In this document: positions 1,926 to 18,008 of the stretch, piece by piece
Position numbering within the stretch: the first letter of the stretch is position 1
How the letters are laid out: each line of letters starts with the position of its first letter
Origin: a virus
Lineage: Duplodnaviria; Heunggongvirae; Uroviricota; Caudoviricetes
DNA: 20,058 nt
Direction: 5' to 3' (one strand)
IMG/VR virus record: IMGVR_UViG_2617270985_000008
Made by a program: the position numbers and the translations under genes
The notes under the pieces: model-generated
What the model was told of the DNA's origin: nothing
Seen by the model: only the letters and a program-made list of their open reading frames with translations
Databases searched by the model: none

Positions 1926-2011
1926 TGTTGTTCATGTCTGTGAGATAGGGTGCCACTTCAGCCAACCTTAGCAACCGATTGACGGGGGATTGCTCCCCCG
2001 TCGCGGTTTCC

Positions 2012-2342: not shown

Positions 2343-2603
2343 TTAATTCTGAGGTAAAGGCAAACTCATCTGATTGTTTCCCCTGTGTGAAGCTGGCAGC
2401 TCATGCCACGGGATACCTTCCGAAGAGTGAACGCCGGAGGCGTGTTTTGATGTGAATTTATGGAAAGCTTCCAGTGTTGAGAAGCATACGCCGCATTCCA
2501 GGTTGTTACACTGGTAATACTTTTGCCGCACAGTGTTTGAATCGTTTTCCGGACGACTGGTGCGGATTCGGGCAGATGCGCCACAAAGCGGACAACGGAA
2601 CAT
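2343..2603 (-). CDS. ogr: Ogr/Delta-family zinc-finger late-gene transcriptional activator
   Basis: N-terminus MFRCPLCGASARIRTSR...YYQCNNLECGVCF matches the P2 Ogr Cys4 zinc-finger pattern (MFHCPLC...ARTSR...YHQC.N..C). Strong SD GGGAGG 5 nt before the ATG. Confidence 0.85.
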   Translation of the reverse strand: MFRCPLCGASARIRTSRPENDSNTVRQKYYQCNNLECGVCFSTLEAFHKFTSKHASGVHSSEGIPWHELPASHRGNNQMSLPLPQN

Positions 2604-2892
2604 AGCGACCTCCCTTAACGTGGTGCTGCCGCTATTCTAAGTTGTAATAGCTCAGACTCCAACTGACAGTTTGCGCAGCCAGAATACAATCAAACCTAGC
2701 GGTACGCTTTGTGCGAAGAGCGGAAGTTCGCAACTCCAACAACTTTGATAACCTCCGCATAAATGGAAATCGGTTGCTTACATAAGTTTATTGGCTGAGG
2801 TGCATATCGGGAAGCAAGCGGGCAGTGCCATCTTATCTGTTACAATCCCGAAATGATTGTTCAGCCCGCTTTTTCTAACAGCATGTAAACAT

Positions 2893-4032
2893 TCAGCTGC
2901 AAATTTCGTTGTTGCTGCATGTTATCTCTTCAAGTGCAGCGGCGTTATAATCAACGGAATGATCAACCTGTGATGTAGGTCTGCCAAAAAATTCAACCCC
3001 TGACATAATCATGTTGCCGATATTCTCTCGCTGTTTATCACTGAGCCTGTCCCACCACTCAGGGGATGAATATGTATTTTCGGCCTTTGTGAAGAAAAAA
3101 TACAGAAGGGTATTGAACATCCTGTTAGCTGGGATCTTAATTAGTGTCCGTATAAAACGTCTGATAATTGTTGAAGTTCTCAGCCAACTGAACACTACAT
3201 ATCCCTTACCTCCGCAGGAAAAAGCATTGAAACATACTTGTTCCGCCGACACTGTAAGATCGCTCAAATCCTGAATTTTGGTCCCATCGAAATCCCTCTC
3301 CGGTGAAAGAATTGACGAAACTACAATTGGTAAAGGCTCTGCAAAAGTGAAGATAACACTTTCAATTTCTGAAAATTGCCTGCTAAGTAGGATGCGGTCG
3401 AGGCTAGTTTTAAGATTATTTAATTCAATTATTGCTGCATTTAAGCCACTTTGGTGCTGGTCGATTAATTTCTGAATATAATACTGTTCAACTTGTAGCT
3501 TTCCTTTATCGGCATTTTTAGCAAAATCAGAAGATAGCACTCCCCCTTCTTTGGCATAAATTTCTTTAGACAATGAACGAAACATTAAGGCAAAGCACTG
3601 CTCGTCCGTGCCTGTAAATTTTTCGTTCTCTAGGCATGAAAATAAGATTCTGTCATGAACTGCACAAAATCCTGTAAAAGTGGATGCCTGATTGATACCG
3701 ATCTTCTCGGGAAGCCATTTTCCGTTGTTTCTCATCAGGCTTGCTAAGTTCATTATCACCCCCATGACGTGATTGCTGGAGTCGGCGATCGCCTTAAGGC
3801 TACTGCTCTTAGATATCGTATGCGCCTGAACGATGCGTTTATCACAATCTTCGTGCATGGATGCTGGCGCATAACATGCCTTTCTCTGCGAGAGAGACTT
3901 TGAAAATTTCAGTGCCTCGGCTTTGGATACCGGAGTTTCACGATCTCGACCAAGATGGCACTTTTTATACTTAAGTCCTGAATTACACCAGCACTTATCA
4001 TTTCTTCCTAATTTCACTTTATTGTTTCCCAC
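2893..4032 (-). CDS. Hypothetical protein with N-terminal SEC-C zinc-binding motif (prophage cargo)
   Basis: 379-aa ORF in a markedly AT-rich segment between D and ogr. The N-terminus KLGRNDKCWCNSGLKYKKCH resembles the SecA C-terminal SEC-C metal-binding motif. No Walker A or other catalytic motif recognised. Start is GTG at 4032 (or GTG at 4017); no in-frame ATG before the motif. Confidence 0.7.
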   Translation of the reverse strand: MGNNKVKLGRNDKCWCNSGLKYKKCHLGRDRETPVSKAEALKFSKSLSQRKACYAPASMHEDCDKRIVQAHTISKSSSLKAIADSSNHVMGVIMNLASLMRNNGKWLPEKIGINQASTFTGFCAVHDRILFSCLENEKFTGTDEQCFALMFRSLSKEIYAKEGGVLSSDFAKNADKGKLQVEQYYIQKLIDQHQSGLNAAIIELNNLKTSLDRILLSRQFSEIESVIFTFAEPLPIVVSSILSPERDFDGTKIQDLSDLTVSAEQVCFNAFSCGGKGYVVFSWLRTSTIIRRFIRTLIKIPANRMFNTLLYFFFTKAENTYSSPEWWDRLSDKQRENIGNMIMSGVEFFGRPTSQVDHSVDYNAAALEEITCSNNEICS

Positions 4033-4431
4033 GAAATTAATGTTCTATAACAAAAACACTTATCGAAAATAGGTGTAATTTATCACTCCGGCAGCTAAAA
4101 GATCATCTGCCACATGCACGATAATAAATCTTCCTTGCGTCATCATCTCCCTCTGTTCTTAAATCAGGTGTTGCCTGTGTGCGGAGGATTCGCGAAGTAC
4201 AGTAGCCGAAATGCATGATCTTACCCATCAATGGTGAGCACGCGATAATAAGTGAGTCCCTAATTGACCACTCATGGCAATACAACTTCAACCAGCATTC
4301 ATGACCACTATCCGTGGATTAACTGTTACATAAGCAACACCTGCTCTAGGCACAAAGCGGGCTGCCAGATTGGGTCTGGCACTGTGCTGTGAGTGTGTCA
4401 GTTCTGGTTTGAGTCAATACATCTAATTTGC

Positions 4432-5532
4432 TCATTCTGTTTCTGCTATCCATTCCGGGATTTTTGCTTCAAGCTCAAGCTGTGTGGTAAAGCCGCTGTT
4501 ATCAATGGTGTGCTCGGCTTTTGCAATAATCCAGTCCTGATTATCGATGTCACTTTTGAAGCCTGTCACCGTGCCATGCATTTCGGGATAGAGTTCTGCG
4601 CGTCCACGCGCCAGCGTGATGGAGAATGATGCGGCTCCGCGTTGTAGCTGCTGCCACTTTGCCGCCGCTGCACGTCTTGCTGCCTGCTCGTTCTGATAAG
4701 TCTTGCGTAACACAAACACGTTGCCTTCCGCACCTTCCATATAGTCACCTTCACGGCTGCTGCTTTTCTCCTTTTTCGGTTTGCGGCGTTTCACGCTGAC
4801 TTTTTTCTTTTTCCCGTAATTAAGATCAAGCCAGTAAGCACGTACCCCCGTATACGCTTCGCGGTCAGCAATGCGGAACTGATGGCGATCGCCACTGCTG
4901 CGCGTGATGGCGAACGATGGCAACGGCTGGCCCTGTGCGTTCACGCCACCGCCTGGCATGATGAATAACAGATTACTGCTTTTTACCGTAGTGATTGCGC
5001 CCAGCATTTCCGCCATGCGCGTAAGGAAGGACATGTCGCTTTCTTCGGTCTGGTCGGCGTGGTCGATTTCAATATCCATCAGCATTTCGCTGATTTGTGG
5101 TTTCAGACCGTACCGATGAGCGATGGCGGATACCACGCGCTCAACGGTCACATCATGCCAGGACACCTCACGTTTAACGTTAAATTCATCCCGAAAATCT
5201 GCGCTTCTGGCTGAAACAGTCAGCCTGTCCGGCGGTCCTTCGTGAGCGATTTCATCAACAATGTAAGTGCCTTTTTCTGTCAGCGGTTCTCCTTTCCAGC
5301 CAATGAGAACCGTCAGGCGCGCGCCCCGTGGCGGTAGCTGCAACTGACCATCCGCATCATCCAGCGTGATGGTGAGCAGGTCCGCTTCAAATCCCCGGTT
5401 GTCGGTCAGTGACAGGCTCATCAGGCGCTCTGCCACGCCGGACAGTGTTTCCCCCTCCGCGAGAATATCAAAATCCGGCATTTTCACGGGGTCTGTGCTC
5501 TGACTGAGCAATTGCATGGTGGTATCGGTCAT
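4432..5532 (-). CDS. D: P2 gpD-like tail protein (late control gene D family)
   Basis: Translation (…SLSLTDNRGFEADLLTITLDDADGQ…SARSADFR…SDGDRHQFRIADREAYTGV…EGDYMEGAEGNVF…NSGFTTQLELE) matches phage gpD. Start chosen at ATG 5532 (MTDTTMQLL…) because of a strong GGGAGG SD; the longer track ORF to 5664 adds a low-complexity extension with no RBS. Confidence 0.85.
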   Translation of the reverse strand: MTDTTMQLLSQSTDPVKMPDFDILAEGETLSGVAERLMSLSLTDNRGFEADLLTITLDDADGQLQLPPRGARLTVLIGWKGEPLTEKGTYIVDEIAHEGPPDRLTVSARSADFRDEFNVKREVSWHDVTVERVVSAIAHRYGLKPQISEMLMDIEIDHADQTEESDMSFLTRMAEMLGAITTVKSSNLLFIMPGGGVNAQGQPLPSFAITRSSGDRHQFRIADREAYTGVRAYWLDLNYGKKKKVSVKRRKPKKEKSSSREGDYMEGAEGNVFVLRKTYQNEQAARRAAAAKWQQLQRGAASFSITLARGRAELYPEMHGTVTGFKSDIDNQDWIIAKAEHTIDNSGFTTQLELEAKIPEWIAETE

Positions 5533-5689
5533 CTGTTCCCTCCCTGTGCGGCATGGTCGCATGTGCGTGCATAGGGGGTTACTGCTTTTTGTTGTCGCCG
5601 TGGCGGGAGAACGGCGCAGGGGTGAGATTACGCGCGTGGTGGGTGATGATTGTTGCCGAATCATTTAACGGATACAAGGGGCTGAAGCT

Positions 5690-6874
5690 ATGAGTGAAAC
5701 TCGTTTTCATGGTGCCCGTGTTACGGAAAGTACCGACCTGGTAACAGCGATTAATGATGTTGATTCCAGTGTTATCGGTATCGTGGCAACGGCGGATGAT
5801 GCGGACGCGGAGCTGTTCCCGCTGAACAAGCCCACACTGCTGACCCGCGTCAATGACGTGCTGGGAAAATGCGGGACTACGGGGACGCTTTATCGTGCGC
5901 TTAAGGCTATTGCAGACCAGGTGAGCACAAAAGTGATCGTCGTTCGCGTGGCTGAACACAAAGAAGAAGGCGGTAAGACGCAGGATCAACTGGTTATCGG
6001 TGGTTCTGAATCTGACGGCAGCTATACGGGGATGTATGCGCTGCTTGTTGCAGAGCAGGATGAAAGCATCGGATACCGTCCGCGTATTCTGGCCGCGCCG
6101 GAGCTGGACACGGAGGCGGTGACAAAATCCCTGTGCGTGATTGCGGGTAAACTGCGCGCGTTTGTGTATGCCTCATGTCATGACTGTAACACGATGGCTG
6201 AGGCAATTACCTACCGCCAGAAATTCAACGAACGTGAGGTGATGCTCTTATGGCCGGACTTCATCGCCTACAACCCGAAAAGTGGCAAAAACGAAACGTT
6301 CCCCGCGCCTGCCTATGCGTGCGGCCTTCGTGCGTACATTGACCATGAGCAGGGCTGGCACAAATCGCTGTCCAACGTTCCTGTTAAAAATGTGCTGGGG
6401 ATGTCCAGGCATGTTTTCTGGTCGTTGCAGGCCGAAGACAGTGATGCCAACAGCCTCAACAACAAAGAAATCACGACCATTATTCGTCGCAACGGGGTCC
6501 GCTTCTGGGGCAACCGCACACCGGAAACGAACGCCTACATCTTTGAGGTGTATACCCGAACCGCACAGGTGCTGGCTGATTCAATTGCGGAAGCGCAGTT
6601 TGAAACCATCGACAGTCCACTGACGCCTGCGAACGTGAAGGATGTTATCAGTGCCATCAGGGCAAAACTGGATTCGCTGGTTACTGCCGGGAAACTGATT
6701 GGCGCGGAGTGCTGGTATGACGTGGTGGATAACAGCACCACGGATTTACGTCAGGGGCGTGTGCGTATTCGCTACAAATATACGCCCGTTCCGCCACTGG
6801 AAGACATGGAGCTTTACCAGACGTTTACTGATGAATACTTTGAACCCGCATTTGCGGTGCTGGGAGGTGCCTGA
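5690..6874 (+). CDS. FI: Contractile tail sheath protein (P2 FI-like)
   Basis: 394 aa; motifs FPLNKP, LRAF.Y, QGWHKSLSNV, FWGNRT, YTPVPPLE are typical of P2 FI sheath. SD AAGGGG upstream. Confidence 0.9.
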   Translation: MSETRFHGARVTESTDLVTAINDVDSSVIGIVATADDADAELFPLNKPTLLTRVNDVLGKCGTTGTLYRALKAIADQVSTKVIVVRVAEHKEEGGKTQDQLVIGGSESDGSYTGMYALLVAEQDESIGYRPRILAAPELDTEAVTKSLCVIAGKLRAFVYASCHDCNTMAEAITYRQKFNEREVMLLWPDFIAYNPKSGKNETFPAPAYACGLRAYIDHEQGWHKSLSNVPVKNVLGMSRHVFWSLQAEDSDANSLNNKEITTIIRRNGVRFWGNRTPETNAYIFEVYTRTAQVLADSIAEAQFETIDSPLTPANVKDVISAIRAKLDSLVTAGKLIGAECWYDVVDNSTTDLRQGRVRIRYKYTPVPPLEDMELYQTFTDEYFEPAFAVLGGA

Positions 6875-7386
6875 TGGCTGTACCAAAACATCTTCGCTTT
6901 TTTACGCTGTTTGTGGATGGTGAAAACGAAGTGGGTAAGGTGACGTCCGTCACTCTGCCTAAGCTGACGCGCAAAACCGACAGCTACCGGGGTGGTGGCA
7001 TGATGGGTGCGGTAAGTATTGATCTCGGTCTGGACGACTCCGCGCTTGATGCGAGCTTTGTCATGGGGGGCGCAGTTCGTGAGCTGTTCCTTAAGTATGG
7101 CGGCACGATTGACGGCACGCTGCTGCGTTTTGCGGGTGAATATTACACCGATGCAGAAAGCGACCTGTATGAAGTCGAAATGCGCGGACGTGTGACGGAA
7201 ATTGATATGGGGGAAGCCAAACAGGGCGAAGCCACATCACACACTTACGCCATTAAAAACACCTACTACAAGCTGAGTGTTAACGATCGCCCGTTGTGGG
7301 AGATTGACCTGCTGAACTTCATTTACCGGAAGGACGGCAAGGACATTGTGCCCGATCGCATCCGTTCCGCGCTCGGGCTTGGCTGA
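6874..7386 (+). CDS. FII: Tail tube protein (P2 FII-like)
   Basis: 170 aa, start overlaps the FI stop (TGATG). Size, position after the sheath gene and sequence fit gpFII. Confidence 0.88.
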   Translation: MAVPKHLRFFTLFVDGENEVGKVTSVTLPKLTRKTDSYRGGGMMGAVSIDLGLDDSALDASFVMGGAVRELFLKYGGTIDGTLLRFAGEYYTDAESDLYEVEMRGRVTEIDMGEAKQGEATSHTYAIKNTYYKLSVNDRPLWEIDLLNFIYRKDGKDIVPDRIRSALGLG

Positions 7387-7440
7387 TAAGTAATATGCAG
7401 GCGGCGCAGTGCGTCGCCTCTGACTGAAAGGAGTTTCCTG

Positions 7441-7806
7441 ATGAAAGAGACGAAAAACATCGATACCGAAAACACGGTAGTTGCTGACACTGTGAAAGAA
7501 ACCAGTGAGCGTGGTGTAAAACTTACCCAACCAATTGAGCGAGGCGGCGAAAAAATCACGTATGTGGAGATCACCGGGGCTATTGAGCAGGCTGGATCTC
7601 TGCGAGATTTGTCGCTGTCTGATGTGCTGAATCTGAAAGCGGAATCCATGTTTACGCTGCTGTCACGCGTGACATCACCGCGACTGGATGAAGTGACGAT
7701 CAAAAAAATGGCATCCCGTGACTTTATTCAGTTATGTGTGGTTGCCGTAAATTTTTTGAGCGGTGCGGACTCTGGCGGGAAGAACGAACAGGCGACGGAA
7801 GCCTGA
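7441..7806 (+). CDS. E: Tail assembly chaperone gpE (zero-frame product)
   Basis: 121-aa ORF with AAGGAG SD, immediately upstream of the tape measure; contains slippery heptamer T_TTT_TTG at 7752-7758. Confidence 0.8.
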   Translation: MKETKNIDTENTVVADTVKETSERGVKLTQPIERGGEKITYVEITGAIEQAGSLRDLSLSDVLNLKAESMFTLLSRVTSPRLDEVTIKKMASRDFIQLCVVAVNFLSGADSGGKNEQATEA

Positions 7807-7970
7807 TCACGGTTGTGTGCTTTGAGCACATAGAAGACTTTGTGGCAGATATTGCCGTTATTTTTAACTGGTCGCCCGCCGAAATCTTCATGATGACGCC
7901 CGGCGAAGTGGTTAGCTGGCGTGAGCGGGCGGCACTTCGCAGCGGGAATGCAGACAATGAAGACTCTTGA
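7441..7970 (+). CDS. Tail assembly chaperone gpE+E' (programmed -1 frameshift fusion)
   Basis: The -1 frame stays open from the slippery site (7752-7758) to TGA at 7968-7970 (the track ORF 7734..7970 is this frame), giving the E+E' extension that ends where T begins, as in P2 (analogous to lambda G/GT). Confidence 0.65.
7752..7758 (+). other. Slippery heptanucleotide T_TTT_TTG for -1 ribosomal frameshift
   Basis: Sequence aaTTTTTTGag inside E, in the correct phase (X XXY YYZ) for the E frame. Confidence 0.65.
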
Positions 7971-10764
7971 TATCCGGGTCGCTTTCAGCGCCGTTGACAG
8001 GCTGACCCGGCCTGCCGAAAACGCCCGCCGCCTGATGGGGCAGTTTGGTGACTCCATCCAGCGAACGCAGGGGGCGATTAAAAATCTCGAGCGTCAGGCT
8101 CGTTCATTTGAGCGCGCCCGCGACGCTGTCAGTAAAGCGGATGCGGGTATCGTGAAAGCACGACGCCAGCTTAACGCCCTTAATCAGTTACAACGCACGG
8201 GTACAGTGCTCAGCGAAAAACAACAAAAGCTGATGCAGCAGTTAAGCACCCGGCTTGAACGCCTGAATGAATCGCGCACACGGGAAATTCAGAAAATGCG
8301 GGAGCTTGGCGGAGAGCTGAAACGCCACGGCATTTCCCTGACAGGCAGCGATAACACCATCCAGCAGGCCATCAGACGCACCGAACAGTACAACAACCAG
8401 CTTGAACGCGAACGGCAGGCGCTTGCGCGTGTAACGCGGGCGCGTGAGTGGTATTCGCGCGCGCAGGAAACCGCGGGAAAACTGAAAACAGGTGGTGCGC
8501 TGGCAATTGGTGCGGCAGCGGCGGGCGGCTATGCTGCCGGGCGTTTTTTGCAGCCCGCGATCGGGTTCGGCAAAGAGATGTCCCGCGTTCAGGCGCTGAC
8601 GCGAATCGACCAGAACAGCCCGCAGTTTAAGGCGCTGCGTGAGCAGGCGTTAAAACTTGGCTCTGAAACGCAGTTCACCGCAGGCGATGCCGCCAGTGGG
8701 CAGGCATTTCTTGCAATGGCAGGCTTCACACCGCAGGCCATTCAGGCTGCGCTTCCCGGAGTGCTGAGCATGGCAACGGCTGGCGGTATGGATCTCGGCG
8801 AGACGGCAGATATTGGCTCAAATATCCTGACGCAGTTCGGCCTTTCTGCTGACCAGATGGACCGGGTCGGTGACACACTCACCGCAGCGTTTACCCGTAC
8901 CAACACTGACCTTCGCGCACTGGGCGAAACCATGAAATATGCAGGTCCGGTGGCGGGTAAGCTGGGAATATCGCTGGAGCAGGCCGCAGCGATGGCTGGT
9001 GTGCTGGCGAATATGGGCATCAGAGGGAGTGATGCCGGGACGGCAATGCGTGCCAGCCTGGCTCGTCTGGCATCACCGCCAAAGGCGGCGGCAGAAGCTC
9101 TGAAAGAGCTGGGCGTGTCCGTCTCGGATGCCGGGGGTAAAATGCGCCCGATGGAGGATGTGCTGGCCGACCTTTATAAAGCCACCCGCAAATACGGGGA
9201 AGTTGACCGGGTATCGTTCTTTAAGGACATTGCCGGAGAAGAGGCTTTCACATCGTTTATGGCGCTCGTTGATGCAGTGGGTGACGGTTCCTTACCCAAA
9301 CTGAGAAAAGAACTTGAAGGCGCGCGCGGTGAGGCTGAACGCACAGCAAAGGTTATGGCCAACAACCTTGACGGCGATCTGAAATCACTCGGCAGTGCAT
9401 GGGAAGGGTTGCGCATCCGCATTGCAGATCTGATTGACGGTCCGCTGCGTTCTGTCACGCAGTGGCTCACGCGGGTGGTATCAAGGGTGACGGCGCTGGC
9501 GCAGGCCCATCCGGCACTGACGCGCCAGCTACTGATAGCAGGCGGTGCGTTGCTGGCAATGACTGCAACGGTTGGCTCGTTGTCGCTGGCTATTGGTGTG
9601 CTTGCTGGTCCGCTGGCAAAACTGCGTCTTGGTTTTTCTCTCCTGACCGGATCAATGAATGCTGTCAGGGTCCTGCCAGCACTATGGGGAATGGTGACGG
9701 GTTCCGTTTCTTTACTGGGAGGCGCTATCGGGGCGCTGTTCAGTCCGGTTGGTCTTATCGTGGCTGCGCTTGCCGGAGCTGCCGTCCTTATCTGGAAATA
9801 CTGGGATCCCATCAGGGCATTTTTTGCCGGGGTGTTCAGCGGGATTATGGAAAGGCTGAACCCGTTGCGTGAAACCTTTGAACGGTTTGGCCCTGTTTTT
9901 GACGCAATCGGAAGCGGGATCAGCCAGGTGTTTAACTGGTTTAAATCGCTGCTGTCACCGATGGAGTCCAGCAAGGAAACGCTGGATAAATGTACCAGTG
10001 CTGGCGAGATATTCGGTAACGTTCTTGGCGGTGCGTTACAACTTGTTCTGACACCTGCAAAAATGCTACTGGATACGCTGGCGTGGATACTTGAAAAACT
10101 TGGCGTCCTTCCGGATGAAGCGGAAAGGGCGCGCAAGAAAATCGAAGACGCACAGCGTGCGGCCATTCTTCAGGATAAGGTTGCCTTACTTCAGGGGGAC
10201 CTGGCGAAAATCAATCCGCCGAAGCCTGTGGAAAATGGCAATGGCACCGGAGGTGATAAACCCAAAGACAACAAACCGCTCACAGACAGCAATACCGGGA
10301 CGCTACGCAGACTCAGCAAAATTGCTGATAACACAGGTAAGCTGGTTGATGAGACGAAAAAACGCATTGGCCCTGGCGATATTGTCTTTAAGAACCTGCC
10401 CCGCGCACTTGCTGTTCGTGGGGAGTGGCAGGAGCGGAAGATTGCGCAGGTCAGTAAGCCTGCCCCCGCAATTAATATCACACCCGTAGTCCCGGCTCCG
10501 CTGCCTCCGGCGCTGGTCCCTGTTGTTGCGGCCAGCTCCCGCCCGGTGGCGGAGGCCATACGATCGCCAGTGGCATCAGTTCCTGCAGCTTCCCGTAATC
10601 GGGAGCCTGCTGTCTCCAGATTTGGCGGTGAAATTCATGTTCATCTGCATAACGTTGTTACGCAGAATCCCCGCGAACTGGCGAAACTGGTCGGTGAAAT
10701 GGTCAGGGCAGAAATGGAACGGCGCGCCCGTGCCGGGCGTGGCAGTTTTTACGATAAAGATTGA
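7921..10764 (+). CDS. T: Tail tape measure protein (P2 gpT-like)
   Basis: 947-aa ORF, coiled-coil-rich N-terminal half, hydrophobic Gly/Ala-rich central segments, Pro-rich C-terminus; located between E/E' and U. Track start is GTG 7921; the true start is more likely ATG 7948 or 7957. Confidence 0.85.
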   Translation: MSGRHFAAGMQTMKTLDIRVAFSAVDRLTRPAENARRLMGQFGDSIQRTQGAIKNLERQARSFERARDAVSKADAGIVKARRQLNALNQLQRTGTVLSEKQQKLMQQLSTRLERLNESRTREIQKMRELGGELKRHGISLTGSDNTIQQAIRRTEQYNNQLERERQALARVTRAREWYSRAQETAGKLKTGGALAIGAAAAGGYAAGRFLQPAIGFGKEMSRVQALTRIDQNSPQFKALREQALKLGSETQFTAGDAASGQAFLAMAGFTPQAIQAALPGVLSMATAGGMDLGETADIGSNILTQFGLSADQMDRVGDTLTAAFTRTNTDLRALGETMKYAGPVAGKLGISLEQAAAMAGVLANMGIRGSDAGTAMRASLARLASPPKAAAEALKELGVSVSDAGGKMRPMEDVLADLYKATRKYGEVDRVSFFKDIAGEEAFTSFMALVDAVGDGSLPKLRKELEGARGEAERTAKVMANNLDGDLKSLGSAWEGLRIRIADLIDGPLRSVTQWLTRVVSRVTALAQAHPALTRQLLIAGGALLAMTATVGSLSLAIGVLAGPLAKLRLGFSLLTGSMNAVRVLPALWGMVTGSVSLLGGAIGALFSPVGLIVAALAGAAVLIWKYWDPIRAFFAGVFSGIMERLNPLRETFERFGPVFDAIGSGISQVFNWFKSLLSPMESSKETLDKCTSAGEIFGNVLGGALQLVLTPAKMLLDTLAWILEKLGVLPDEAERARKKIEDAQRAAILQDKVALLQGDLAKINPPKPVENGNGTGGDKPKDNKPLTDSNTGTLRRLSKIADNTGKLVDETKKRIGPGDIVFKNLPRALAVRGEWQERKIAQVSKPAPAINITPVVPAPLPPALVPVVAASSRPVAEAIRSPVASVPAASRNREPAVSRFGGEIHVHLHNVVTQNPRELAKLVGEMVRAEMERRARAGRGSFYDKD

Positions 10765-10770
10765 GGAGTC

Positions 10771-11265
10771 ATGGCCATGATGATGATCTATGGCATGTTT
10801 GTTTTTGAGCTGCGCACGCTGCCGCATCAGCAGTTACAGCAAAACAAAAGCTGGCGGCATGTGAAAAATGAACGCGTTAACCGTTCAGCAAGCTGGCAGT
10901 ATATCGGTGCAGGTGATGATCGCATCGTTCTTTCTGGTGTGCTTTATCCTGAAATTACAGGTGGCGAAGTGTCGCTGTCTCTGCTGACCACGCAGGCGTA
11001 TACAGGACGGCCCTGGCCTCTGATTGATGGCGTCGGGCAGATTTACGGCATGTATGTCCTGACCGAAACGAATACGACCCGCTCCGAGTTTGATCGCTAC
11101 GGTAAGGCGAAAAAGATAGAATTTTCACTGACTCTTGAACGCTGTGATGAGGATTTGCGGGAGCGCCTGCAATCCTCATCGTTCAGCGATATGTTGTCCG
11201 GCTTCAAAGATAAGGTGACATCATCCCTTAATAGCGCGACCAGCTCAGTTAAGGGGCTGCTCTGA
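10771..11265 (+). CDS. U: Tail protein gpU-like
   Basis: 164 aa; TLPHQQLQQNKSWRH…LSGVLYPEITGGEVSL…WPLIDG…RSEFDRYGKAKKIEFSLTLE resembles P2 gpU. Several ATGs at 10771-10785, so the exact start is uncertain. Confidence 0.8.
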   Translation: MAMMMIYGMFVFELRTLPHQQLQQNKSWRHVKNERVNRSASWQYIGAGDDRIVLSGVLYPEITGGEVSLSLLTTQAYTGRPWPLIDGVGQIYGMYVLTETNTTRSEFDRYGKAKKIEFSLTLERCDEDLRERLQSSSFSDMLSGFKDKVTSSLNSATSSVKGLL

Positions 11266-11341
11266 TTTAACGTATGTCGCCAATTTCCTGATGAAGGTGA
11301 CTGGCGACTTGCTGTTGTATGTCCTTCTCAGAAAATTGTTT

Positions 11342-11370
11342 TTGAATAACAAACAACAGGATTTTATAAT
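11342..11370 (+). promoter_or_regulatory. Near-consensus sigma70 promoter (TTGAAT, 17-nt spacer, TATAAT) driving the acetyltransferase
   Basis: TTGAAT at 11342-11347 and TATAAT at 11365-11370; a second TATAAT at 11381-11386. About 50 nt upstream of the AAGGAG SD. Confidence 0.5.
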
Positions 11371-11421
11371 CTCTTAACCTTATAATATGTGTGGTCTGAA
11401 ATAATAATTAAGGAGATTATC

Positions 11422-11994
11422 GTGCTGTCTTACTTAATGGCAATTCACTTTGTTTTATTTGGGGACTCTACTAATTTAAAAAACTTCTGGAAATATGAAG
11501 TAATTCGGCGGAAACGTATGGATATCTGGAGGCTTTTAAGAGAGAAAAAACAGCGTAACCGGAATTTCCTTTTCTGGTGGCGGTTGGCTAACGAAATGTA
11601 TATTAATGGTAATAAATTACATAAGAAAGCAGCCAAAAAGTTAAACAGTAAAATAATTAACAAATTTGGTTGTGAAATTGGATTGGGCGCAAATATTGGA
11701 AAAGGGTTAACAATTCCCCATCATGCTGGAATTGTTGTTCATTTTGCTGTTGATGCTGGTGAAAATCTGGTGTTACGACAGAATACTACCATTGGACAGA
11801 TAGATGGTGACATGCCTGGTTCAAGAGTAAAAATTGGTAGTAACGTTGATATCGGAGCTAATTGTTGCATCATTGGATTATCACGTAAAATTGGGGATAA
11901 TGTAAAAATAGGTGCAATGTCTTTTATAAATAAAGATATACCATCGAACTGCACATATATAACTAAAAAGAGCGGTGTTGTATTGTATAAATAG
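11422..11994 (+). CDS. Hexapeptide-repeat (left-handed beta-helix) acetyltransferase, serine acetyltransferase/WcaB-like
   Basis: AT-rich ORF; C-terminal half has hexapeptide repeats (IGANIGKGLTIPHHAGIVV…IGSNVDIGANCCIIG…IGDNVKIGAMSFI). Start set at GTG 11422 with AAGGAG 6 nt upstream; the track ORF begins at 11389 without an RBS. Confidence 0.8.
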   Translation: MLSYLMAIHFVLFGDSTNLKNFWKYEVIRRKRMDIWRLLREKKQRNRNFLFWWRLANEMYINGNKLHKKAAKKLNSKIINKFGCEIGLGANIGKGLTIPHHAGIVVHFAVDAGENLVLRQNTTIGQIDGDMPGSRVKIGSNVDIGANCCIIGLSRKIGDNVKIGAMSFINKDIPSNCTYITKKSGVVLYK

Positions 11995-12002
11995 AGTACA
12001 TA

Positions 12003-12030
12003 AAGCCATCTATATTTCAATCGATGGCTT
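12003..12030. terminator. Bidirectional hairpin terminator between the acetyltransferase and the tail-fibre assembly gene
   Basis: 8-bp perfect stem AAGCCATC / GATGGCTT with 12-nt loop, flanked by AAA on the left and TTTTCTCTTT on the right. Confidence 0.5.
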
Positions 12031-12037
12031 TTTCTCT

Positions 12038-12616
12038 TTATTGTGGGGCGACTGGCCACTCAACATCCGCTGCTACCGCTGTATTAACACGATTCAACAA
12101 TACCCGGTATGTCTTCCATGCAGCCAGTAACGATGCCTCTTCCTCCGTTGCAATATCCAAATCTACGGCATCCTGAAGTGGCGCAATATGCTCGCTGGCT
12201 ACCTGCATCAGGCTGTTTTTTGTTTCTTCCGCCTCCCTTATCCGAAACAGTTTTTCTGCTTCTGCATCTTTCACCCAGGATGTGCCGTTCCACTTCTGAT
12301 ACTCTCCATACGGCGACAACCAGGTAACATTTTCCGGTAATGGACCGAGTTCAGAAATAAATAACGAGTCCCCTGATGCCACGTCATAAACCGTTTTACC
12401 CCGATGGTCTTCAACGAGATGCCACGATGCCTCATCACTGTTGAAAACGGCCACGAAGCCAGCCGGAATATCTGGCGGGGCAATATCGGTACTGTTTGCA
12501 GGCAGACCTGTATGAGGTGGAATGTATGCATCACCTTCACCAATAAACTCATTGGTTCCGGTCAGTAGATTATAAATTTTTATGGTCCGTGAGTGTTCAC
12601 TCATTCTGAATGTCAT
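12038..12616 (-). CDS. G: Tail fibre assembly protein (P2 gpG / Tfa family)
   Basis: 192 aa directly downstream of the tail-fibre gene; C-terminus (…[35 protein letters not shown]) is the conserved Tfa signature. Alternative start ATG 12604. Confidence 0.8.
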
Positions 12617-12653
12617 TATGCAAGCCTCACAATATAGTTAAATGCGATGTTTT

Positions 12654-13976
12654 TTACGGTGTTTTCTTCGTTAACTCCAGACCTGTGGCCCCCTGCATAT
12701 TATCTGTCAGGGCGGTCAGCCGACCTTTTGAAGCCAGATTAACTGACGATACTGCTGTCCCATCTGACGGTAACGCCCCGATCTCTGATGCTGTTGGCTT
12801 ATTCCTGGAGTTATAGTCCCTTCGCCAGCCAGGAGCATAAGCATCACCATGATTAATATAAGTAAATTGAGCATTAGGGATGCCTTCACCGCTGGATGTA
12901 CTCGGTGTGGTAATGCGTATGGTCATTGCGCCGCGGGTGCCAATAACTTCCACAACAGCACCTGCAAGACAAATACTTCCGCAACCTGTATCTGTAATGA
13001 CCTTATTATTTGCATAAGCCCATGAGCCTTTGCACATCCAGTAAGGATGGTTAAATGCCCCCTGACTCTCTAGCCAAAAAATCAACTGCGCAGTTGTCCA
13101 TGCTTCACTATCTCCACCAATATTCAGCTCTGCACTATATGCACGGCAGGCACCGATATTTTTCGTAAAGGTGTCTTTATCAGAGATATCCTCACCATTC
13201 TTAGCTTTCTGCAGACGTTTTTCAGCATTGTCATAGGCAGCTTTTACTGCATTTGATGTTGCCGCCAGCGTTTCAGATGTACTGTTGGTTGCACTACTAA
13301 GCTGGACAAGGCCTTTTCGCGCTGTTGTGGCATCCTGCGCTGTATATTTTCCGTTAGCAAGATCATACGCGACCTTAACCGCTTTCGGCGTTGCAGCCAG
13401 CGTTTCAGAATCGCTGTTAGTGGCGCTACTGAGTTGAACAAAGCCTTTTGCGGTCAGCGAGGCATCCGGGTGACATCGTGACTGTTCATGCTCTTTCAGT
13501 TTGTTATCCACGTAATCCACTGTGGCCATCACCATGGTGTTATCCACGGTAAGCGCCACAGTGGCAGTGCTGGATACGGTCAGAATGGTGCGAAATGTTT
13601 GTGCACGTCCGGACCCTTCGGCAACGGCTGGCTTGTAACTTTCGGCAGTATTGCCCACCGCGATTAAATCGCCGTGCTCATCAAACACACCAATTTCCCG
13701 GATCCAGAATCCGCCCGTTTCTGGAGGAATAACCAGCTCCGCAATAATGCGGTTCTGATGTGTTGCGTCCAGGATGACGCGATTAACAGTGTGTCGCCAC
13801 ACCTCATGCACCAGACGGGTCTGCTTACTGTCTGGTGTGGGCAACGCGCCGCCACCGTCGCCCACGGCCATATGAGTCAGGCGGACAGGCTTACCATCTG
13901 GCGCGGCTGCCTGAGCTAATTTTTTGGCACCTGTATCGGTGATAACGGTTTTAAATTTTCGTGTTGTGGTACTCAT
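12654..13976 (-). CDS. H: Tail fibre protein (P2 gpH-like)
   Basis: 440 aa; conserved gpH N-terminal domain (…VRLTHMAVGDGGG…RLVHEVWRH…AELVIPPETGGFWIREIG…ESYKP…) and duplicated QLSSATNS.SETLAAT motif; divergent C-terminal domain. Confidence 0.88.
   Translation of the reverse strand: MSTTTRKFKTVITDTGAKKLAQAAAPDGKPVRLTHMAVGDGGGALPTPDSKQTRLVHEVWRHTVNRVILDATHQNRIIAELVIPPETGGFWIREIGVFDEHGDLIAVGNTAESYKPAVAEGSGRAQTFRTILTVSSTATVALTVDNTMVMATVDYVDNKLKEHEQSRCHPDASLTAKGFVQLSSATNSDSETLAATPKAVKVAYDLANGKYTAQDATTARKGLVQLSSATNSTSETLAATSNAVKAAYDNAEKRLQKAKNGEDISDKDTFTKNIGACRAYSAELNIGGDSEAWTTAQLIFWLESQGAFNHPYWMCKGSWAYANNKVITDTGCGSICLAGAVVEVIGTRGAMTIRITTPSTSSGEGIPNAQFTYINHGDAYAPGWRRDYNSRNKPTASEIGALPSDGTAVSSVNLASKGRLTALTDNMQGATGLELTKKTP
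13230..13445 (-). repeat. Intragenic tandem repeat in the tail-fibre gene (two copies, 132-nt period)
   Basis: Peptide repeats GFVQLSSATNSDSETLAATPKAVKVAYD (aa 178-205) and GLVQLSSATNSTSETLAATSNAVKAAYD (aa 222-249); the DNA copies are visibly similar. Confidence 0.6.
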
Positions 13977-13978
13977 GC

Positions 13979-14509
13979 TTAATCGTCCGGATAAATGGTA
14001 ATAACTTCACCGTCATGAGTTGCCGCCGCTGCAAAAATATCCCCCGGAATTTCCTGAATGATATTCAGCCCTGTCATGTGGCGGCTGACCGGACGGGCAT
14101 CAGCAATCAACCGCTCCATTTCCAGATACATTTCCTCCGTCACGCCACTGTCCAGTGTGCCGACTTCAACGGTAAATGTTCCCGGTTCTCCGCCGAACTC
14201 CCACCACTCAGACACGCGAATGAGGTATCCCAGCGGCTCAATGGCCCTGCGCAGTGCGCTGATGGTCCCTTTGTGTCGGTGTATCAGCCATGCATCACGA
14301 ATCACCTGTCGTTTTGTCTCTTCCGGCCAGTTGCGATCCCAGCGGTCAACGGAAAATGCCCAGGCGAGATAAGGCAGCAGGTGCACCGGGCAGGTGTCCG
14401 GCGACCACAGCGTGTTGAGGTCTACCGGGATGTCTGTAATGCGCGTTCCGACAGCTTCGGCACAACGCATGAAACTGCTGGCTGATGGTGGTAACAGTGA
14501 ATTACTCAT
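13979..14509 (-). CDS. I: Baseplate protein gpI-like
   Basis: 176 aa from ATG 14509 (MSNSLLPP…), overlapping the J stop in an ATGAGTAA arrangement; motifs WSPDTCP..LLPYLAWAFSVDRWD…GYLI…EWWE…PGTF…EMERLIADA…SRH match gpI. The track ORF starts 11 codons earlier. Confidence 0.85.
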   Translation of the reverse strand: MSNSLLPPSASSFMRCAEAVGTRITDIPVDLNTLWSPDTCPVHLLPYLAWAFSVDRWDRNWPEETKRQVIRDAWLIHRHKGTISALRRAIEPLGYLIRVSEWWEFGGEPGTFTVEVGTLDSGVTEEMYLEMERLIADARPVSRHMTGLNIIQEIPGDIFAAAATHDGEVITIYPDD

Positions 14510-15257
14510 TGCGCCCACCTTCGCTGATGGTGAACGACTCACAGCGCGCCGCCTGTATGTCGCTGATGGCCATATTCTGTGTGGGTTCGATTATCTCCAC
14601 GCGTTGCACACCGTGCACATGCAGTGCGGCAGCAATGGCGGACAACGCCACGTCCTGACCGATAAGCCCCTGCTCAGCCAGCCACTTCCTGAACGACGAT
14701 TCAGCCGCCGCCAGAATAGGTTCGGATTCCGGGCCGGGGTAAAAGTACAGTTTTGCATTCAGCCGCCATGTCACGATTCTGGCGCTCTGTACCGTCAGGC
14801 GGTCGGCCACCGGGCGGGTATCCTCTGCATTCAGAACGGCGCGAACGGTATTAAGCAACGCCTCCGTTGCTGTGCCGTCGCCTTCAGTGGACAGGATGGA
14901 AACCGTCACATTTGCCGGAGACGGACTGATAGCCCGCGCATCACGCACCAGACCGCTGGCGCTGCGGGCAAAATACTCGTATGCACCTGACGGGCCAGCA
15001 ACACTCAGGCCATCGTACGCCCGCTGCGCCCGCAGTCTCAGCGAGGTGTCACTTTCCATCACTGCGTCGGTGGTATCCGTTGCCGGAGTGATGGTCAGGC
15101 GCTTTGTGTTCATATTGCCCGCGAGGTTGTCCAGGTCTGTCCCGGCGCTGTGGCTTAACATGCAGGCGCGTGCCCCCTCATTGACCCGCTGGCGTAACGA
15201 GCGTTTCACGGTTATGGAGTTCTGATGAGCAGAAAAAATAAAAAAGTGCGCATGAGT
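14502..15257 (-). pseudogene. J: Baseplate assembly protein gpJ, 5'-truncated remnant
   Basis: Translation (…RQRVNEGARA…MESDTSLRLRAQRAYDGLSVAG…RPVADRLTVQSA…YFYPGPESEPI…HVHGVQRVE…) matches roughly the C-terminal 220 aa of gpJ. Homology stops near 15210-15250, where the opposite-strand Q start abuts; about 85 N-terminal codons are missing. Confidence 0.75.
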
Positions 15258-15959
15258 TCACGCATTGATCTCGCTGATGCGCTCAGGAAAGAATCATCGC
15301 TCAGTGCATTCACATTTGATGGTCCTTATCGCCTGACCGGGCATGACCTGCTGGACAATATGTACTGTGCTGATAACGGGCGGTGGTATGAAACCCCGGT
15401 GGACTGGTACGGTCTGGCAAGAGCCGCCCGGCAAACGTCCTGGCATCAGTCTGCGCTTTACTTTAAGCGCAATGTATTGCTCGGTTGCTACATCCCGCAC
15501 CCGCTGCTTTCCCGGCAGGATTTCTCGGCGCTGGCGCTGGACTGGTTTGTGTTCGGTAACGCATTCCTTGAGCTTCGAAGCAATATGCTCGGCGAACCGC
15601 TTAAATTACGGCACGCCCTGGCGAAATACATGCGACGCGGAAGCGATCTTGAATCATGGTGGTATGTGCAGGATGGCAAGGATGCGTTTCAGTTTCGCCC
15701 AGGCAAAGTGTGCCACCTGATGAATCCGGACATTAACCAGGAAATCTACGGCATGCCGGAATATCTCGGCGCATTACTCTCGGCCAGCCTGTCTCATTCG
15801 GCGGACATGTTCAGAAAACTGTATTACGACAACGGATCCCACGCCGGGTGCATCATCTACATCGGTGCAGCGCAGGTAAACCGCGAAAGCATGGACTCCC
15901 TGAAAGAAACGCTACAGGGTGCGCGTGGTGGTGGTGCGTTTCACGTCCTCTGGAGGTGA
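15225..15959 (+). pseudogene. Q: Portal protein gpQ, 3'-truncated remnant
   Basis: 244-aa ORF with portal motifs (…NGRWYE…YFKRNVL…IPHPLLS.QDF…FGNAFLE…DINQEIYGMPEYL…YYDNGSHAG…) corresponding to roughly the N-terminal 70% of a P2-type portal; ends in unrelated sequence. Confidence 0.75.
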
Positions 15960-16076
15960 AACGAACGACAGGAAAATGCTTAATTGCCATTACGCCTCCT
16001 TGGTGTGTGTGAATACCTCTGCGAATGCAGATTGTGTTCACATTTTTTTATTTAAGCTGGGGTTTTATTTATGCGG

Positions 16077-16190
16077 TTATTCGCCAGTGAAAAAGCGTTC
16101 AATCTTTTTTACTGAATTAATAATTCGCATAATACCAATTGCACAAACTACCGAAATAATAAGAACAATCCAGGATATAAATATACTCAT
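16077..16190 (-). CDS. Putative 37-aa hydrophobic membrane peptide
   Basis: Not in the ORF track. ATG overlaps the stop of the upstream 80-aa gene (ATGA coupling). Translation MSIFISWIVLIISVVCAIGIMRIINSVKKIERFFTGE has one TM helix and a basic C-terminus. Confidence 0.35.
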   Translation of the reverse strand: MSIFISWIVLIISVVCAIGIMRIINSVKKIERFFTGE

Positions 16191-16429
16191 GCGATATTTC
16201 CCAGTTTGTACGGCTCAATATGCTCCCCGCATTCTGCGGCGCAGATAAGCTCAGAAAGTTCATTAAGTGCATCCAGATCGTCAGCGTAAAAAGCTACGTC
16301 ATACAGACTCCGGATAGCCCTGGTCAATGAGTCACGGGCTGCACGTTCTGAATGAGCGCCGGATGCGCTTAAACGAAAATAAAAACGCTCAAGTGCTTTG
16401 TTGATGAGAGTTTTATATTCTTTATCCAT
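16187..16429 (-). CDS. Hypothetical prophage early-region protein (80 aa)
   Basis: Tightly packed in the leftward early operon; no recognisable motif. Confidence 0.5.
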   Translation of the reverse strand: MDKEYKTLINKALERFYFRLSASGAHSERAARDSLTRAIRSLYDVAFYADDLDALNELSELICAAECGEHIEPYKLGNIA

Positions 16430-16440
16430 CGCAACACCCT

Positions 16441-16719
16441 TTAATCTGCTTTCTGAATTTCAGCTTCTGAATCCATGCAGATAATCTCGATATAGGGTTC
16501 ATCGCCATTAACCTGACGAGATTTTTCGGCTTCGCTAATTATTTCGCGAATGATCTGGTACGGAAGCTCTACAGTCAGGCGTGTACCGTTCAGATAAACG
16601 TAGGTAGCTGCGTTTTTTTCAGATGGAACTACTCCGTCAATAGCTGATGCGCGTAATAACAGTTCACCGCGAAAATCAATAAAGCGGATAAATACACCTT
16701 GTGCATGGTCTTTAGTCAT
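16441..16719 (-). CDS. Hypothetical prophage early-region protein (92 aa)
   Basis: ORF 11 nt downstream of the previous gene on the same strand; acidic C-terminus; function unknown. Confidence 0.5.
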   Translation of the reverse strand: MTKDHAQGVFIRFIDFRGELLLRASAIDGVVPSEKNAATYVYLNGTRLTVELPYQIIREIISEAEKSRQVNGDEPYIEIICMDSEAEIQKAD

Positions 16720-16729
16720 AAAGCACCTG

Positions 16730-17080
16730 TTATAAAGCAGCCTGTTTAATAAAACTTTGCCCGCGAAGCAGACGATCGACTGTGCGTAGTGCTTCGTACA
16801 ATGTGAAATCCTGCCCGAACTGATTATCGCCGCTGCTTAATGCAAAAATGCGGTTTCCGGTAAACGGATTGTGTGGGCATCTGTGAACCACGATTCCAGC
16901 TTTCTCAATCAGCCAGGTGTGTTCGCCGATTTGTTTTACAGCGTGCCCATCTGGTGTTGCGTGCGTCTCGTTCAGGTTATAGCGGCTGTTACTACGTGAT
17001 GCACTGGTAGCGACGTGGTGTACATGGCGTTCTACGCCATTACGAAATTTGGAGTATGGATTATTAGTGTTTTTTTTCAT
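16730..17080 (-). CDS. Hypothetical prophage early-region protein (116 aa)
   Basis: ORF in operon arrangement; His/Cys-containing; function unknown. Confidence 0.5.
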   Translation of the reverse strand: MKKNTNNPYSKFRNGVERHVHHVATSASRSNSRYNLNETHATPDGHAVKQIGEHTWLIEKAGIVVHRCPHNPFTGNRIFALSSGDNQFGQDFTLYEALRTVDRLLRGQSFIKQAAL

Positions 17081-17101
17081 GATGATGCTCTGTTCATTGT
17101 T

Positions 17102-17305
17102 TTAGCTGTTAGCCAAAGCGTCTTTTAACATCGCCACAAGGTTTACTTCAGGCTTTTCCATTTTGGCGCGTTTGGGGCGGATAATAATTCGACCGTCAGC
17201 CAACATCTTTTTGCATGTATTAAGAGGGATACCTGTTATCTCTGCATATTTCTGCAGGGATACATAGGGGGCATTCACATTGATATTGATGGTTATACCT
17301 GACAT
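17102..17305 (-). CDS. Cox/Apl-like small DNA-binding protein (putative excisionase/regulator)
   Basis: 67 aa; the segment PYVSLQKYAEITGIPLNTCKKMLADGRI resembles the HTH region of P2 Cox (PYQEFAKLIGKSTGAVRRMIDKGKLP); position in the early operon fits. Confidence 0.55.
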   Translation of the reverse strand: MSGITININVNAPYVSLQKYAEITGIPLNTCKKMLADGRIIIRPKRAKMEKPEVNLVAMLKDALANS

Positions 17306-17603: not shown

Positions 17604-18008
17604 ATGAAAAATGATATTGGTCAGCGGTTGCGTGAGGAAAGGGAAAGATTGGGACTTAGTCAAGTTGCCATGAGCGACATTGGTGGAGTCAAAAAGCTAA
17701 CTCAGCTTAGATATGAGAAAGGAGATAGCTTTCCTGATGCTGCGTATTTGGCAGCGCTGTCTCGTTTTGGCCTTGATGTTCAGTATGTTGTGTTGGGAAT
17801 TCACTCACCTGAAACTTATAACGATGATGAGCAGGAGTTGATTACTCGCTTTCGAGCAGCTTCGTTAGATGTGAAAAACGCGGTGATCGGGGCTTTAAAA
17901 GGTGCGATCAGTGAAAAGGAAACTCAGCCATCAGGACGTGAGTTAAATATTTCTGGTGGTAATAACCGTATCGCTGGTCGTGACTATAACGAAACTAAGG
18001 GTAGGTGA
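17604..18008 (+). CDS. XRE-family helix-turn-helix repressor (P2 C / CI-like immunity repressor)
   Basis: 134 aa; N-terminal IGQRLREERERLGLSQVAMSD…YEKG is a canonical HTH_XRE; first gene of the operon ending in int, as in P2 (C-int). The C-terminus carries the GGNNRIAGRDYNE motif. Confidence 0.75.
   Translation: MKNDIGQRLREERERLGLSQVAMSDIGGVKKLTQLRYEKGDSFPDAAYLAALSRFGLDVQYVVLGIHSPETYNDDEQELITRFRAASLDVKNAVIGALKGAISEKETQPSGRELNISGGNNRIAGRDYNETKGR

Follow-up and report, generated by a model that had tools for sequence, protein, structure and literature searches.

Prophages are reportedly inactivated rapidly and are then subject to slow decay. R-type tailocins, e.g., R-pyocins, are P2-related contractile bacteriocins which possess no capsid genes. 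In the genus of phage P88 (Xuanwuvirus, Peduoviridae), the tail genes lie beside attL (hok-ogr-D, then FI-FII-E-T-U, a moron and G-H-I-J-W-V...), with the genes for lysis, head, terminase and replication occupying the centre. The P2-like remnant Sp13 of E. coli O157 Sakai kept its early and replication functions, is devoid of most morphogenetic genes, and was excised, replicated and packaged although it lacks head genes (Asadulghani et al. 2009, PMC2669165).

The window, i.e. the whole stretch of 20,058 nucleotides (IMG/VR record IMGVR_UViG_2617270985_000008) analysed here, contains a prophage remnant located at the pgsA–leuZ locus of the E. coli chromosome. Judged from its sequence, the element is a defective member of the P88-like prophages (Peduoviridae, Xuanwuvirus), that is, an ordinary P2-like prophage crippled very recently. 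Pfam matches above the curated cut-offs were obtained for the P2-type proteins GpU, Tail_P2_I, GpE, GPD, FII tube and Ogr/Delta. P88 covers 78 % of positions 5690-14509 at 96.8 % identity, and its gene order agrees with that of the window (synteny comparison). An apparently complete prophage of ~37 kb in E. coli 2013C-4538 (locus L006), which shares the pgsA-leuZ/yecA site with the window, served as reference. The gene order common to the window, P88 and the 2013C-4538 prophage includes the FI-U block inverted relative to D, unlike in P2, and all late genes retained in the window are 100 % identical to those of the 2013C-4538 prophage. Attachment site, ogr, hok, integrase and early genes are likewise shared with prophages of this type. 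Compared with them, the window has lost replication gene A, the partition genes, the genes for tail completion, lysis, head and terminase, the 3' portion of the portal gene and, upstream of I, most of the V operon; its fibre gene H is truncated. The gene set of a viable phage (morphogenesis, lysis and replication) is therefore incomplete, with H, J, W, V, S, R, lysis, X, L, M, N, O, P, Q and A removed or truncated.

Integration into a tRNA gene is indicated by the integrase gene together with a 123-bp att duplication overlapping leuZ, the second copy of which (attR) lies outside the window and recurs beyond int in loci L001, L003 and L006. The following features were identified outside the tail genes proper:

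917-1071, plus strand: tRNA-Leu(UAA) gene leuZ (ARAGORN) with the attL copy of the 123-bp repeat (949-1071)
2012-2152, minus strand: Hok/Gef-family toxin gene, retained (annotation of the 2013C-4538 prophage via the 1048-base offset)
2343-2603, minus strand: ogr, late-gene activator (Ogr/Delta zinc finger), intact (Pfam PF04606, E=5e-14; RefSeq annotation of the 2013C-4538 prophage)
2893-4032, minus strand: SEC-C motif protein ("YecA family"), 379 aa, a moron between ogr and D (Pfam SEC-C)
11422-11994, plus strand: acetyltransferase-like moron (hexapeptide; RefSeq name serine O-acetyltransferase, weak Hexapep match)
16077-17305, minus strand: retained part of the early operon, comprising a Cox-like DNA-binding protein, a DUF4761 protein, a hypothetical protein, a DUF4754 protein and a 37-aa ORF (Pfam; annotation of the 2013C-4538 prophage via the 19167-base offset)
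17604-18008, plus strand: HTH immunity repressor (C-like), intact (Pfam HTH families; RefSeq annotation)
18024-19051, plus strand: lysogeny-side accessory genes for a 216-aa membrane protein and a 115-aa DUF2511 protein (Pfam; annotation of the 2013C-4538 prophage)
19057-20058, plus strand: tyrosine integrase, 333 aa, intact (PF00589; RefSeq annotation)

The SEC-C moron is absent from the ogr-D position in P88 and in an independent remnant of strain IAL7250. The acetyltransferase moron occupies the place where P88 carries an invertase and an alternative fibre cassette; it has a low GC content of 0.39, a predicted sigma-70-like promoter at 11342-11370 (promoter scan) and alternative ORF starts at 11389 and 11422. 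Assignment of this ORF, which follows U, to gpD was rejected on the basis of its RefSeq name and the weak Hexapep match. A PADLOC scan of the accessory ORFs called no defence system, weak matches being limited to the SEC-C motif or HTH.

Aligned with the 2013C-4538 prophage, the window is collinear except for three deletions (offsets of 1048, 1820, 12636 and 19167 bases), which amount to a total loss of 18.1 kb. Deletion A (772 bp; junction 12672-12673, overlap TA) is located within the tail fibre gene H and shifts its frame. Deletion B (10,816 bp; junction 15196-15198, overlap AAC) comprises the 5' end of J together with W, V, S, R, the lysis genes (holin, endolysin, LysB/C), X, L, M, N, O and P, and deletion C (6,531 bp; junction 15940-15941, overlap TT) extends from the portal gene, whose 3' end it removes, up to and including replication gene A. 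The microhomology of 2–3 bp (imperfectly longer) at all three junctions suggests deletion by illegitimate recombination; all three deletions may even stem from one multi-jump template-switch event. Three genes were truncated:

12654-13976, minus strand: tail fibre H, truncated, ORF of 440 aa (translation versus the 2013C-4538 allele; offsets and junction A)
14502-15198, minus strand: baseplate protein J, 5'-truncated (Pfam Baseplate_J, profile positions 112-255 only; junction B; annotation of the 2013C-4538 prophage)
15225-15959, plus strand: portal (Q) fragment (PF04860; offsets and junction C)

The fibre ORF encodes 435 native residues followed by TKKTP and a stop, as compared to 710 aa of the intact allele, so that the C-terminal 275 aa are gone; the frame changes because 772 bp is not a multiple of 3. 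From the 5' end of J, 200 nt (about 67 codons, start codon included) are missing, as is the P_V operon that precedes it. The portal fragment keeps 239 of 348 native codons, which are followed by 5 aberrant ones.

The following tail genes were retained at full length:

4432-5532, minus strand: gpD (tail/baseplate hub, late control D), 366 aa (Pfam PF05954; 100 % identical to intact prophages)
5690-6874, plus strand: tail sheath FI, 394 aa, intact (Pfam Phage_sheath_1, Gp18_domIII_N and sheath_1C; identical to the 2013C-4538 prophage)
6874-7386, plus strand: tail tube FII, 170 aa, intact (Pfam PF04985, E=7.5e-47)
7441-7970, plus strand: tail chaperones E (7441-7806) and E+E' (sequence reading; PF06528)
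7957-10764, plus strand: tape measure T, 935 aa from the annotated ATG at 7957 (Pfam PF10145, E=3.6e-58; RefSeq start in the 2013C-4538 prophage)
10777-11265, plus strand: gpU tail terminator, 162 aa, intact (Pfam PF06995, E=5e-39)
12038-12616, minus strand: tail fibre assembly chaperone G, 192 aa, intact (Pfam PF02413, E=1e-39)
13979-14509, minus strand: baseplate protein gpI, 176 aa, intact (Pfam PF09684, E=8e-51)

A -1 frameshift site for E/E' is predicted at 7752-7758 (T TTT TTG, in the E frame), the -1 frame being open to 7970; the 51-aa product of 7815-7970 matches PF06528 (Phage_P2_GpE). The longest tape measure ORF starts with GTG at 7921 (947 aa; ORF list), and 10771 and 10777 are alternative starts of the gpU ORF. 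The preliminary description had stated that the head, terminase, lysis and spike genes are missing, and indeed capsid, scaffold, terminase, lysis, V and W genes are absent, all of them under the three deletions. Its further statement that all tail frames between 5690 and 14509 are intact holds at full length for sheath, tube, E/E', tape measure, U, G and I, but not for fibre H, which is open yet frameshifted by deletion A; a frameshift on alignment was what that description had itself named as contrary evidence. Neither does D belong to this interval, since the gpD gene occupies 4432-5532 of the minus strand, in divergent orientation to FI.

The age of the deletions was assessed from sequence identity. 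Positions 1897-16148, which include every tail gene, show 0 mismatches to the 2013C-4538 prophage over about 14 kb, and only four isolated prophage SNPs (1896, 16149, 17592 and 18086) were found in about 19 kb. In contrast, the host flanks differ from those of 2013C-4538 at 4 of 561 bp on the left and 46 of 5,902 bp on the right (about 0.75 %). Zero prophage differences over the tail genes next to diverged host flanks imply that the prophage is far younger than the host split. The D-U block (6,834 bp) is 100 % identical in seven complete genomes. The right flank is 100 % identical to that of the E. coli 55989 lineage; the prophage of 55989 at the same site was ruled out as ancestor in spite of the common host flank, as it is only 92-98 % identical to the window.

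Under a neutral model, 3.5 % of all single-nucleotide changes that the nine full-length ORFs can undergo give stops, and the probability that all nine are open is 1.0, 0.87 and 0.67 for 0, 1 and 3 substitutions, respectively. Since the ORF sequences are identical to functional-phage alleles, the open frames agree with the neutral prediction and do not exceed chance; as far as can be read from the DNA, they follow from recency alone. Very probably, a P88-like temperate phage at leuZ lost its 18.1-kb centre very recently, the tail genes being undecayed bystanders. The tail block of P88 adjoins attL, distant from the deleted centre, and owing to this att-proximal position, central deletions would spare most tail genes; the remnant of strain IAL7250 likewise lost the same central part and kept its tail block. 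The surviving genes would owe their open frames to the fact that their sequences still equal those of an infectious phage, too little time having passed for any point mutation. Three deletions with no substitution exceed a simple neutral clock; this excess has to be explained by a single complex event or by selection that favoured the deletions, and carries no implication of selection for the tail genes.

The junctions A, B and C are absent from all 5,426 complete E. coli genomes searched. An exact-match scan for junction B found none in IMG/VR and none in the GTDB representative genomes, which fits a private lineage and is informative no further. Identity of the window with Sp13/CP-933T of O157 Sakai was ruled out, as its junctions occur in no complete E. 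coli genome and the retention pattern of Sp13 (PMC2669165) is the reverse, replication being lost and many tail genes being kept in the window. Both truncated proteins, portal and fibre, were detected only on a common set of 6 contigs, which stem from 3 datasets and all match the window at 100 % identity. The source assembly is a draft (GCA_000704285.1, 76-kb contig), and repeats common to P2-like prophages can collapse during assembly, so the deletions might be artefacts masking a complete prophage. However, identical junctions recur in the NCBI assembly and in the Logan assemblies of two runs (SRR1186477 and ERR13731125), and overlaps of 2-3 bp are far too short for assembler collapse, which renders an artefact exceedingly unlikely. 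One 905-bp contig crosses junctions B and C together. In complete genomes, the D-U block is found more often than the head block at megablast level (1,364 versus 1,085, about 280 more); tail-retaining remnants could accordingly be not rare, with mosaicism equally possible, as these counts cannot separate the two.

Private junctions and missing internal diversity, together with the zero substitutions in about 14 kb and the flank divergence of ~0.75 %, strongly favour the first of two alternatives raised in the preliminary description, i.e. that the deletions are very recent. According to the second, the tail genes are maintained by selection, complementation or co-option: a co-resident P2-like prophage or tailocin would supply V, W, J, R, S and an intact fibre, and sheath, tube, tape measure etc. 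would be given to particles or constitute a reservoir of tail genes for recombination with incoming phages. Co-resident prophages can complement defective ones, e.g., Sakai Sp13 (PMC2669165), P88-like tail blocks are common in E. coli (at most five places per genome), and neither ogr nor the D/FI intergenic region departs from its intact form in the functional phage. The late promoter is taken as intact because of this identity; the Ogr-site motif TGT-N12-ACA, which in this form is too weak to be useful, gave 3 matches versus 4.6 expected, none of them in the D/FI intergenic region. Against selective retention stand the lack of post-deletion divergence, which leaves nothing for selection to act on, the truncated fibre and beheaded J, unexpected for a selected module, and the confinement of the remnant to three datasets. 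Values of dN/dS versus diverged relatives are low (0.04-0.19) but equalled by the broken J' (0.08-0.10), so that the signal dates from the time when the phage was still alive. The remnant was not observed to persist vertically in diverged hosts, nor was purifying selection following its inactivation (0 of 5,426 complete genomes, 3 datasets, zero diversity). Selective retention is very unlikely, and with neutral probabilities of open frames of 0.67-1.0 for 0-3 substitutions it is both unsupported and unneeded.

It is also highly improbable that the remnant represents a selected "half-tail" module working in trans, with the three-breakpoint deletion (common motif GCGTTTCACG) as a recurrent, mechanistically specific generator. 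If so, sheath, tube, tape measure, U, D, I and G would be expressed and then built into helper tails or recombined into the helper, the trigger would be a related P2-like phage that superinfects or is induced, or else P4-type delta/Ogr activation, and helper yield or host range would be altered.

A domesticated R-type tailocin, i.e. a P2-derived contractile bacteriocin, was considered, as the window retains sheath, tube, tape measure, U, D, I and the fibre chaperone but has no head and packaging genes; tailocins share homologous sheath, tube, tape measure, U and D with the window as well as the absence of capsid genes. Unlike tailocins, however, the window has no spike V, no W, no tail-completion R and S, no lysis cassette and no dedicated regulators, X is deleted, J is devoid of its first 67 codons and H of its C-terminal 275 aa, and integrase, repressor and att repeats are still there, as in a prophage. 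The probability of this origin is practically negligible, and a stand-alone tailocin is already refuted by gene content. The retained tail genes alone cannot form a tail or tailocin, because V, W, R, S and X have been deleted, J is without its 5' end and H without its receptor-binding C-terminus.

Late transcription in P2 requires replication gene A, which is deleted in the window, and deletion B cut off J'-I-H'-G from the P_V promoter; the recently crippled prophage is probably transcriptionally silent. Loss of the lysis and replication functions was presumably favoured. The remnant resembles other defective prophages of E. coli in belonging to the P2 family, in its internal deletions and in the persistence of integrase, repressor and morons, but differs from them in showing no post-deletion divergence, which places it at the very start of the decay path.

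The result is mainly a negative one, as no sign of tail genes kept for a purpose was seen in the comparisons of identity, junctions, dN/dS and gene content: open reading frames in a crippled prophage are no evidence of selection unless the remnant had time to diverge. Caution is also required with dN/dS versus diverged relatives: even J', visibly a broken fragment, gives a low value, so that this test cannot diagnose domestication of young remnants. The window shows in clean form how prophage decay begins: the lethal centre (lysis, replication and head) is lost via microhomology deletions and the att-proximal tail genes, immunity, integrase and morons are left behind.

The window opens with pgsA and the genes for tRNA-Gly, tRNA-Cys and tRNA-Leu(UAA), i.e., glyW-cysT-leuZ, and prophage DNA extends from directly after leuZ to the final base, where the integrase gene stops. 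Contig JNQM01000018.1 (assembly GCA_000704285.1) corresponds to the window at 100% identity over 14.8 kb and continues downstream of the integrase gene with yecA, tyrP and ftnA. Matches to the flanks exist in each of the 5,426 complete genomes of E. coli, which identifies this species as the host. The right host flank (positions 14835-20735 of L003, a locus carrying it; yecA-tyrP-ftnA and onward) shows 100% identity to that of the E. coli 55989 / FORC_069 lineage, which harbours another P88-like variant at the leuZ site (92-98% identical, D gene disrupted). With the flank shared but the prophage different, closely related strains thus carry distinct variants at the leuZ attachment site.

The tail region shares 96.8% identity over 78% of length with Escherichia phage P88 (Peduoviridae, Xuanwuvirus). 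Gene identities were assigned from Pfam matches.

Prophage genes identified in the window by Pfam
2343-2603, minus strand, Ogr
4432-5532, minus strand, D
5690-6874, sheath FI
6874-7386, tube FII
end at 7970, GpE frameshift product
7957-10764, tape measure T
10777-11265, U
12038-12616, minus strand, fibre chaperone G
12654-13976, minus strand, fibre H
13979-14509, minus strand, I
14502-15161, minus strand, partial baseplate J
15225-15959, partial portal
17604-18008, HTH repressor
19057-20058, integrase

P88 has the same gene order, its FI-FII-E-E'-T-U block likewise running opposite to D and to the V-W-J-I-H-G operon; the inversion is a trait of the genus and no rearrangement of the window. The genus map reads attL - hok - ogr - (moron) - D, then FI to U, a moron and G-H-I-J-W-V, followed by S-R-lysis-X-L-M-N-O, P-Q, morons, A, the early operon, C, accessory genes, int and attR. 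D had been listed in the preliminary description among the tail genes at 5690-14509 and was thereby misplaced; the ORF following U is an acetyltransferase-like moron. The proposed E/E' frameshift site was recovered as a canonical slippery heptamer (T TTT TTG, 7752-7758) in the E frame, the -1 frame being open to 7970.

A Hok/Gef-family toxin gene is kept beside attL (2012-2152, minus strand) and could help stable retention of the remnant. Between ogr and D, a 379-aa ORF (2893-4032, minus strand) has an N-terminal SEC-C motif ("YecA family") as its sole domain; PADLOC returned weak matches limited to this motif. P88 and the prophage remnant of E. coli IAL7250 lack the ORF at this position, which is possibly a cargo or defence hotspot. 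The moron between U and G (11342-11994; RefSeq name serine O-acetyltransferase) is low in GC (0.39) and has a putative sigma-70-like promoter of its own (TTGAAT-17-TATAAT); in P88 and in the IAL7250 remnant, its place is taken by a DNA invertase together with an alternative fibre cassette.

An apparently complete prophage of ~37 kb occupies the same site in E. coli 2013C-4538. Its alignment with the window consists of four blocks without gaps, offset by 1048, 1820, 12636 and 19167 bases, from which three deletions follow.

Deletions in the window relative to the 2013C-4538 prophage
A, 772 bp, interior of fibre gene H; junction overlap TA
B, 10,816 bp, first 200 nt of J, W, V, S, R, DUF6645 moron, lysis cassette, X, L, M, N, O and P; junction overlap AAC
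C, 6,531 bp, portal from codon 240 onward, partition genes, replication endonuclease A, into the early operon; junction overlap TT

The lysis genes, the spike gene V and W are indeed missing, as first described, all within deletion B. The tail ORFs had been reported as intact with uninterrupted frames throughout; this holds for most, but not for the fibre. As the length of deletion A is not divisible by three, the fibre ORF keeps 435 native residues and then ends with TKKTP before a stop codon, compared with 710 residues in the intact allele. The lost distal part is presumably the receptor-binding, chaperone-dependent region.

Longer imperfect similarity surrounds each junction. The window contains three copies of the 10-mer GCGTTTCACG (4786-4795, 15201-15210, 15936-15945) versus 0.07 expected; the latter two coincide exactly with junctions B and C and so bracket the 746-bp portal fragment that survives. 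At breakpoints A and C alike, a CGTT-type left parent is joined to a TCGTAT right parent. No intermediates with one or two of the three deletions were found. In view of the 10-mer copies and the similar breakpoints, the missing intermediates and the absence of point substitutions, a single replication-based event with multiple template-switch jumps may fit better than three unrelated deletions.

Across 1897-16148, no mismatch to the 2013C-4538 prophage was detected; the segment includes ogr, the gene with the SEC-C motif, D, every tail gene, what is left of J and of the portal gene, and the flanks of both large junctions. The remaining prophage differs by four isolated SNPs (1896, 16149, 17592, 18086) and a cluster at 1061-1106 beside the att core. 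This cluster comprises 11 mismatches, mostly G/T changes, private to the window relative to the 2013C-4538 and 55989 prophages, while the following 800 bp are identical to 2013C-4538; a different attL-proximal segment and sequence error in the draft are candidate origins. The D-U block (6,834 bp) is exactly identical in seven complete genomes. Host DNA, in contrast, differs from 2013C-4538 at 4/561 positions on the left and 46/5,902 on the right (about 0.75%), some 35-fold above the prophage divergence. Given this near-identity, the host divergence and the other variant in 55989, the prophage was acquired by infection: it reached this host lineage as a functional phage, long after the hosts had diverged, and the deletions are younger still. 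None of the three junctions occurs in the 5,426 complete E. coli genomes searched, and junction B has no match in IMG/VR or GTDB representatives. The truncated portal and fibre proteins are both encoded on one set of six contigs, drawn from three datasets (GCA_000704285.1, SRR1186477, ERR13731125), all 100% identical to the window wherever overlapping.

Open frames had been attributed to either very recent deletions or maintenance by selection, including co-option. The mismatch-free stretch, the absence of the junctions from complete genomes and the three identical datasets strongly support the former. Nine full-length late-region ORFs were counted (8,118 nt), in which a stop codon would result from 3.5% of the single-base changes that are possible. 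If indels are assumed to be roughly ten times less frequent than substitutions, as in E. coli mutation-accumulation data, the neutral probability of keeping all nine frames open is 1.0, 0.87 and 0.67 for 0, 1 and 3 substitutions, respectively. As zero substitutions were observed (95% Poisson upper bound, three), intact frames are the neutral expectation; their survival does not exceed chance, and selection or co-option is unsupported and unnecessary. Relative to the diverged O157:H- 493/89 and P88, dN/dS is 0.04-0.19 for most tail genes and 0.08-0.10 for the beheaded J fragment. These low values are a trace of evolution inside living phages and are uninformative on maintenance after deletion.

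Removal of the potentially lethal centre (lysis, replication) would spare the tail genes close to att and, at the other end, immunity and integrase. The same outcome is seen in IAL7250 (NZ_CM130729.1, 2400-20200), where an independent P88-like remnant at the ytfP/ppa site lost head, lysis and replication genes through one W-to-early-operon deletion and kept FI-U, invertase, H, G, I and J, with D truncated. Inactivation took a different route in O157:H- 493/89, whose otherwise full-length leuZ-site prophage carries IS30 in gpD (6193-7764 of locus L001).

Judged from its gene content, the remnant alone could not form a virion, tail or tailocin, because it lacks V, W, R, S, X and the lysis genes, retains J and H in truncated form and has lost the V-operon promoter region upstream of the residual J-I-H-G genes. 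Late transcription in P2 requires Ogr and phage DNA replication; with gene A deleted, the FI operon should therefore be silent unless Ogr or a delta activator acts in trans. Another P2-like element in the same genome could in principle complement the remnant, by analogy with Sakai prophages, for which inter-prophage complementation has been demonstrated (PMC2669165). The remnant itself is an ordinary, young, defective P2-like prophage.
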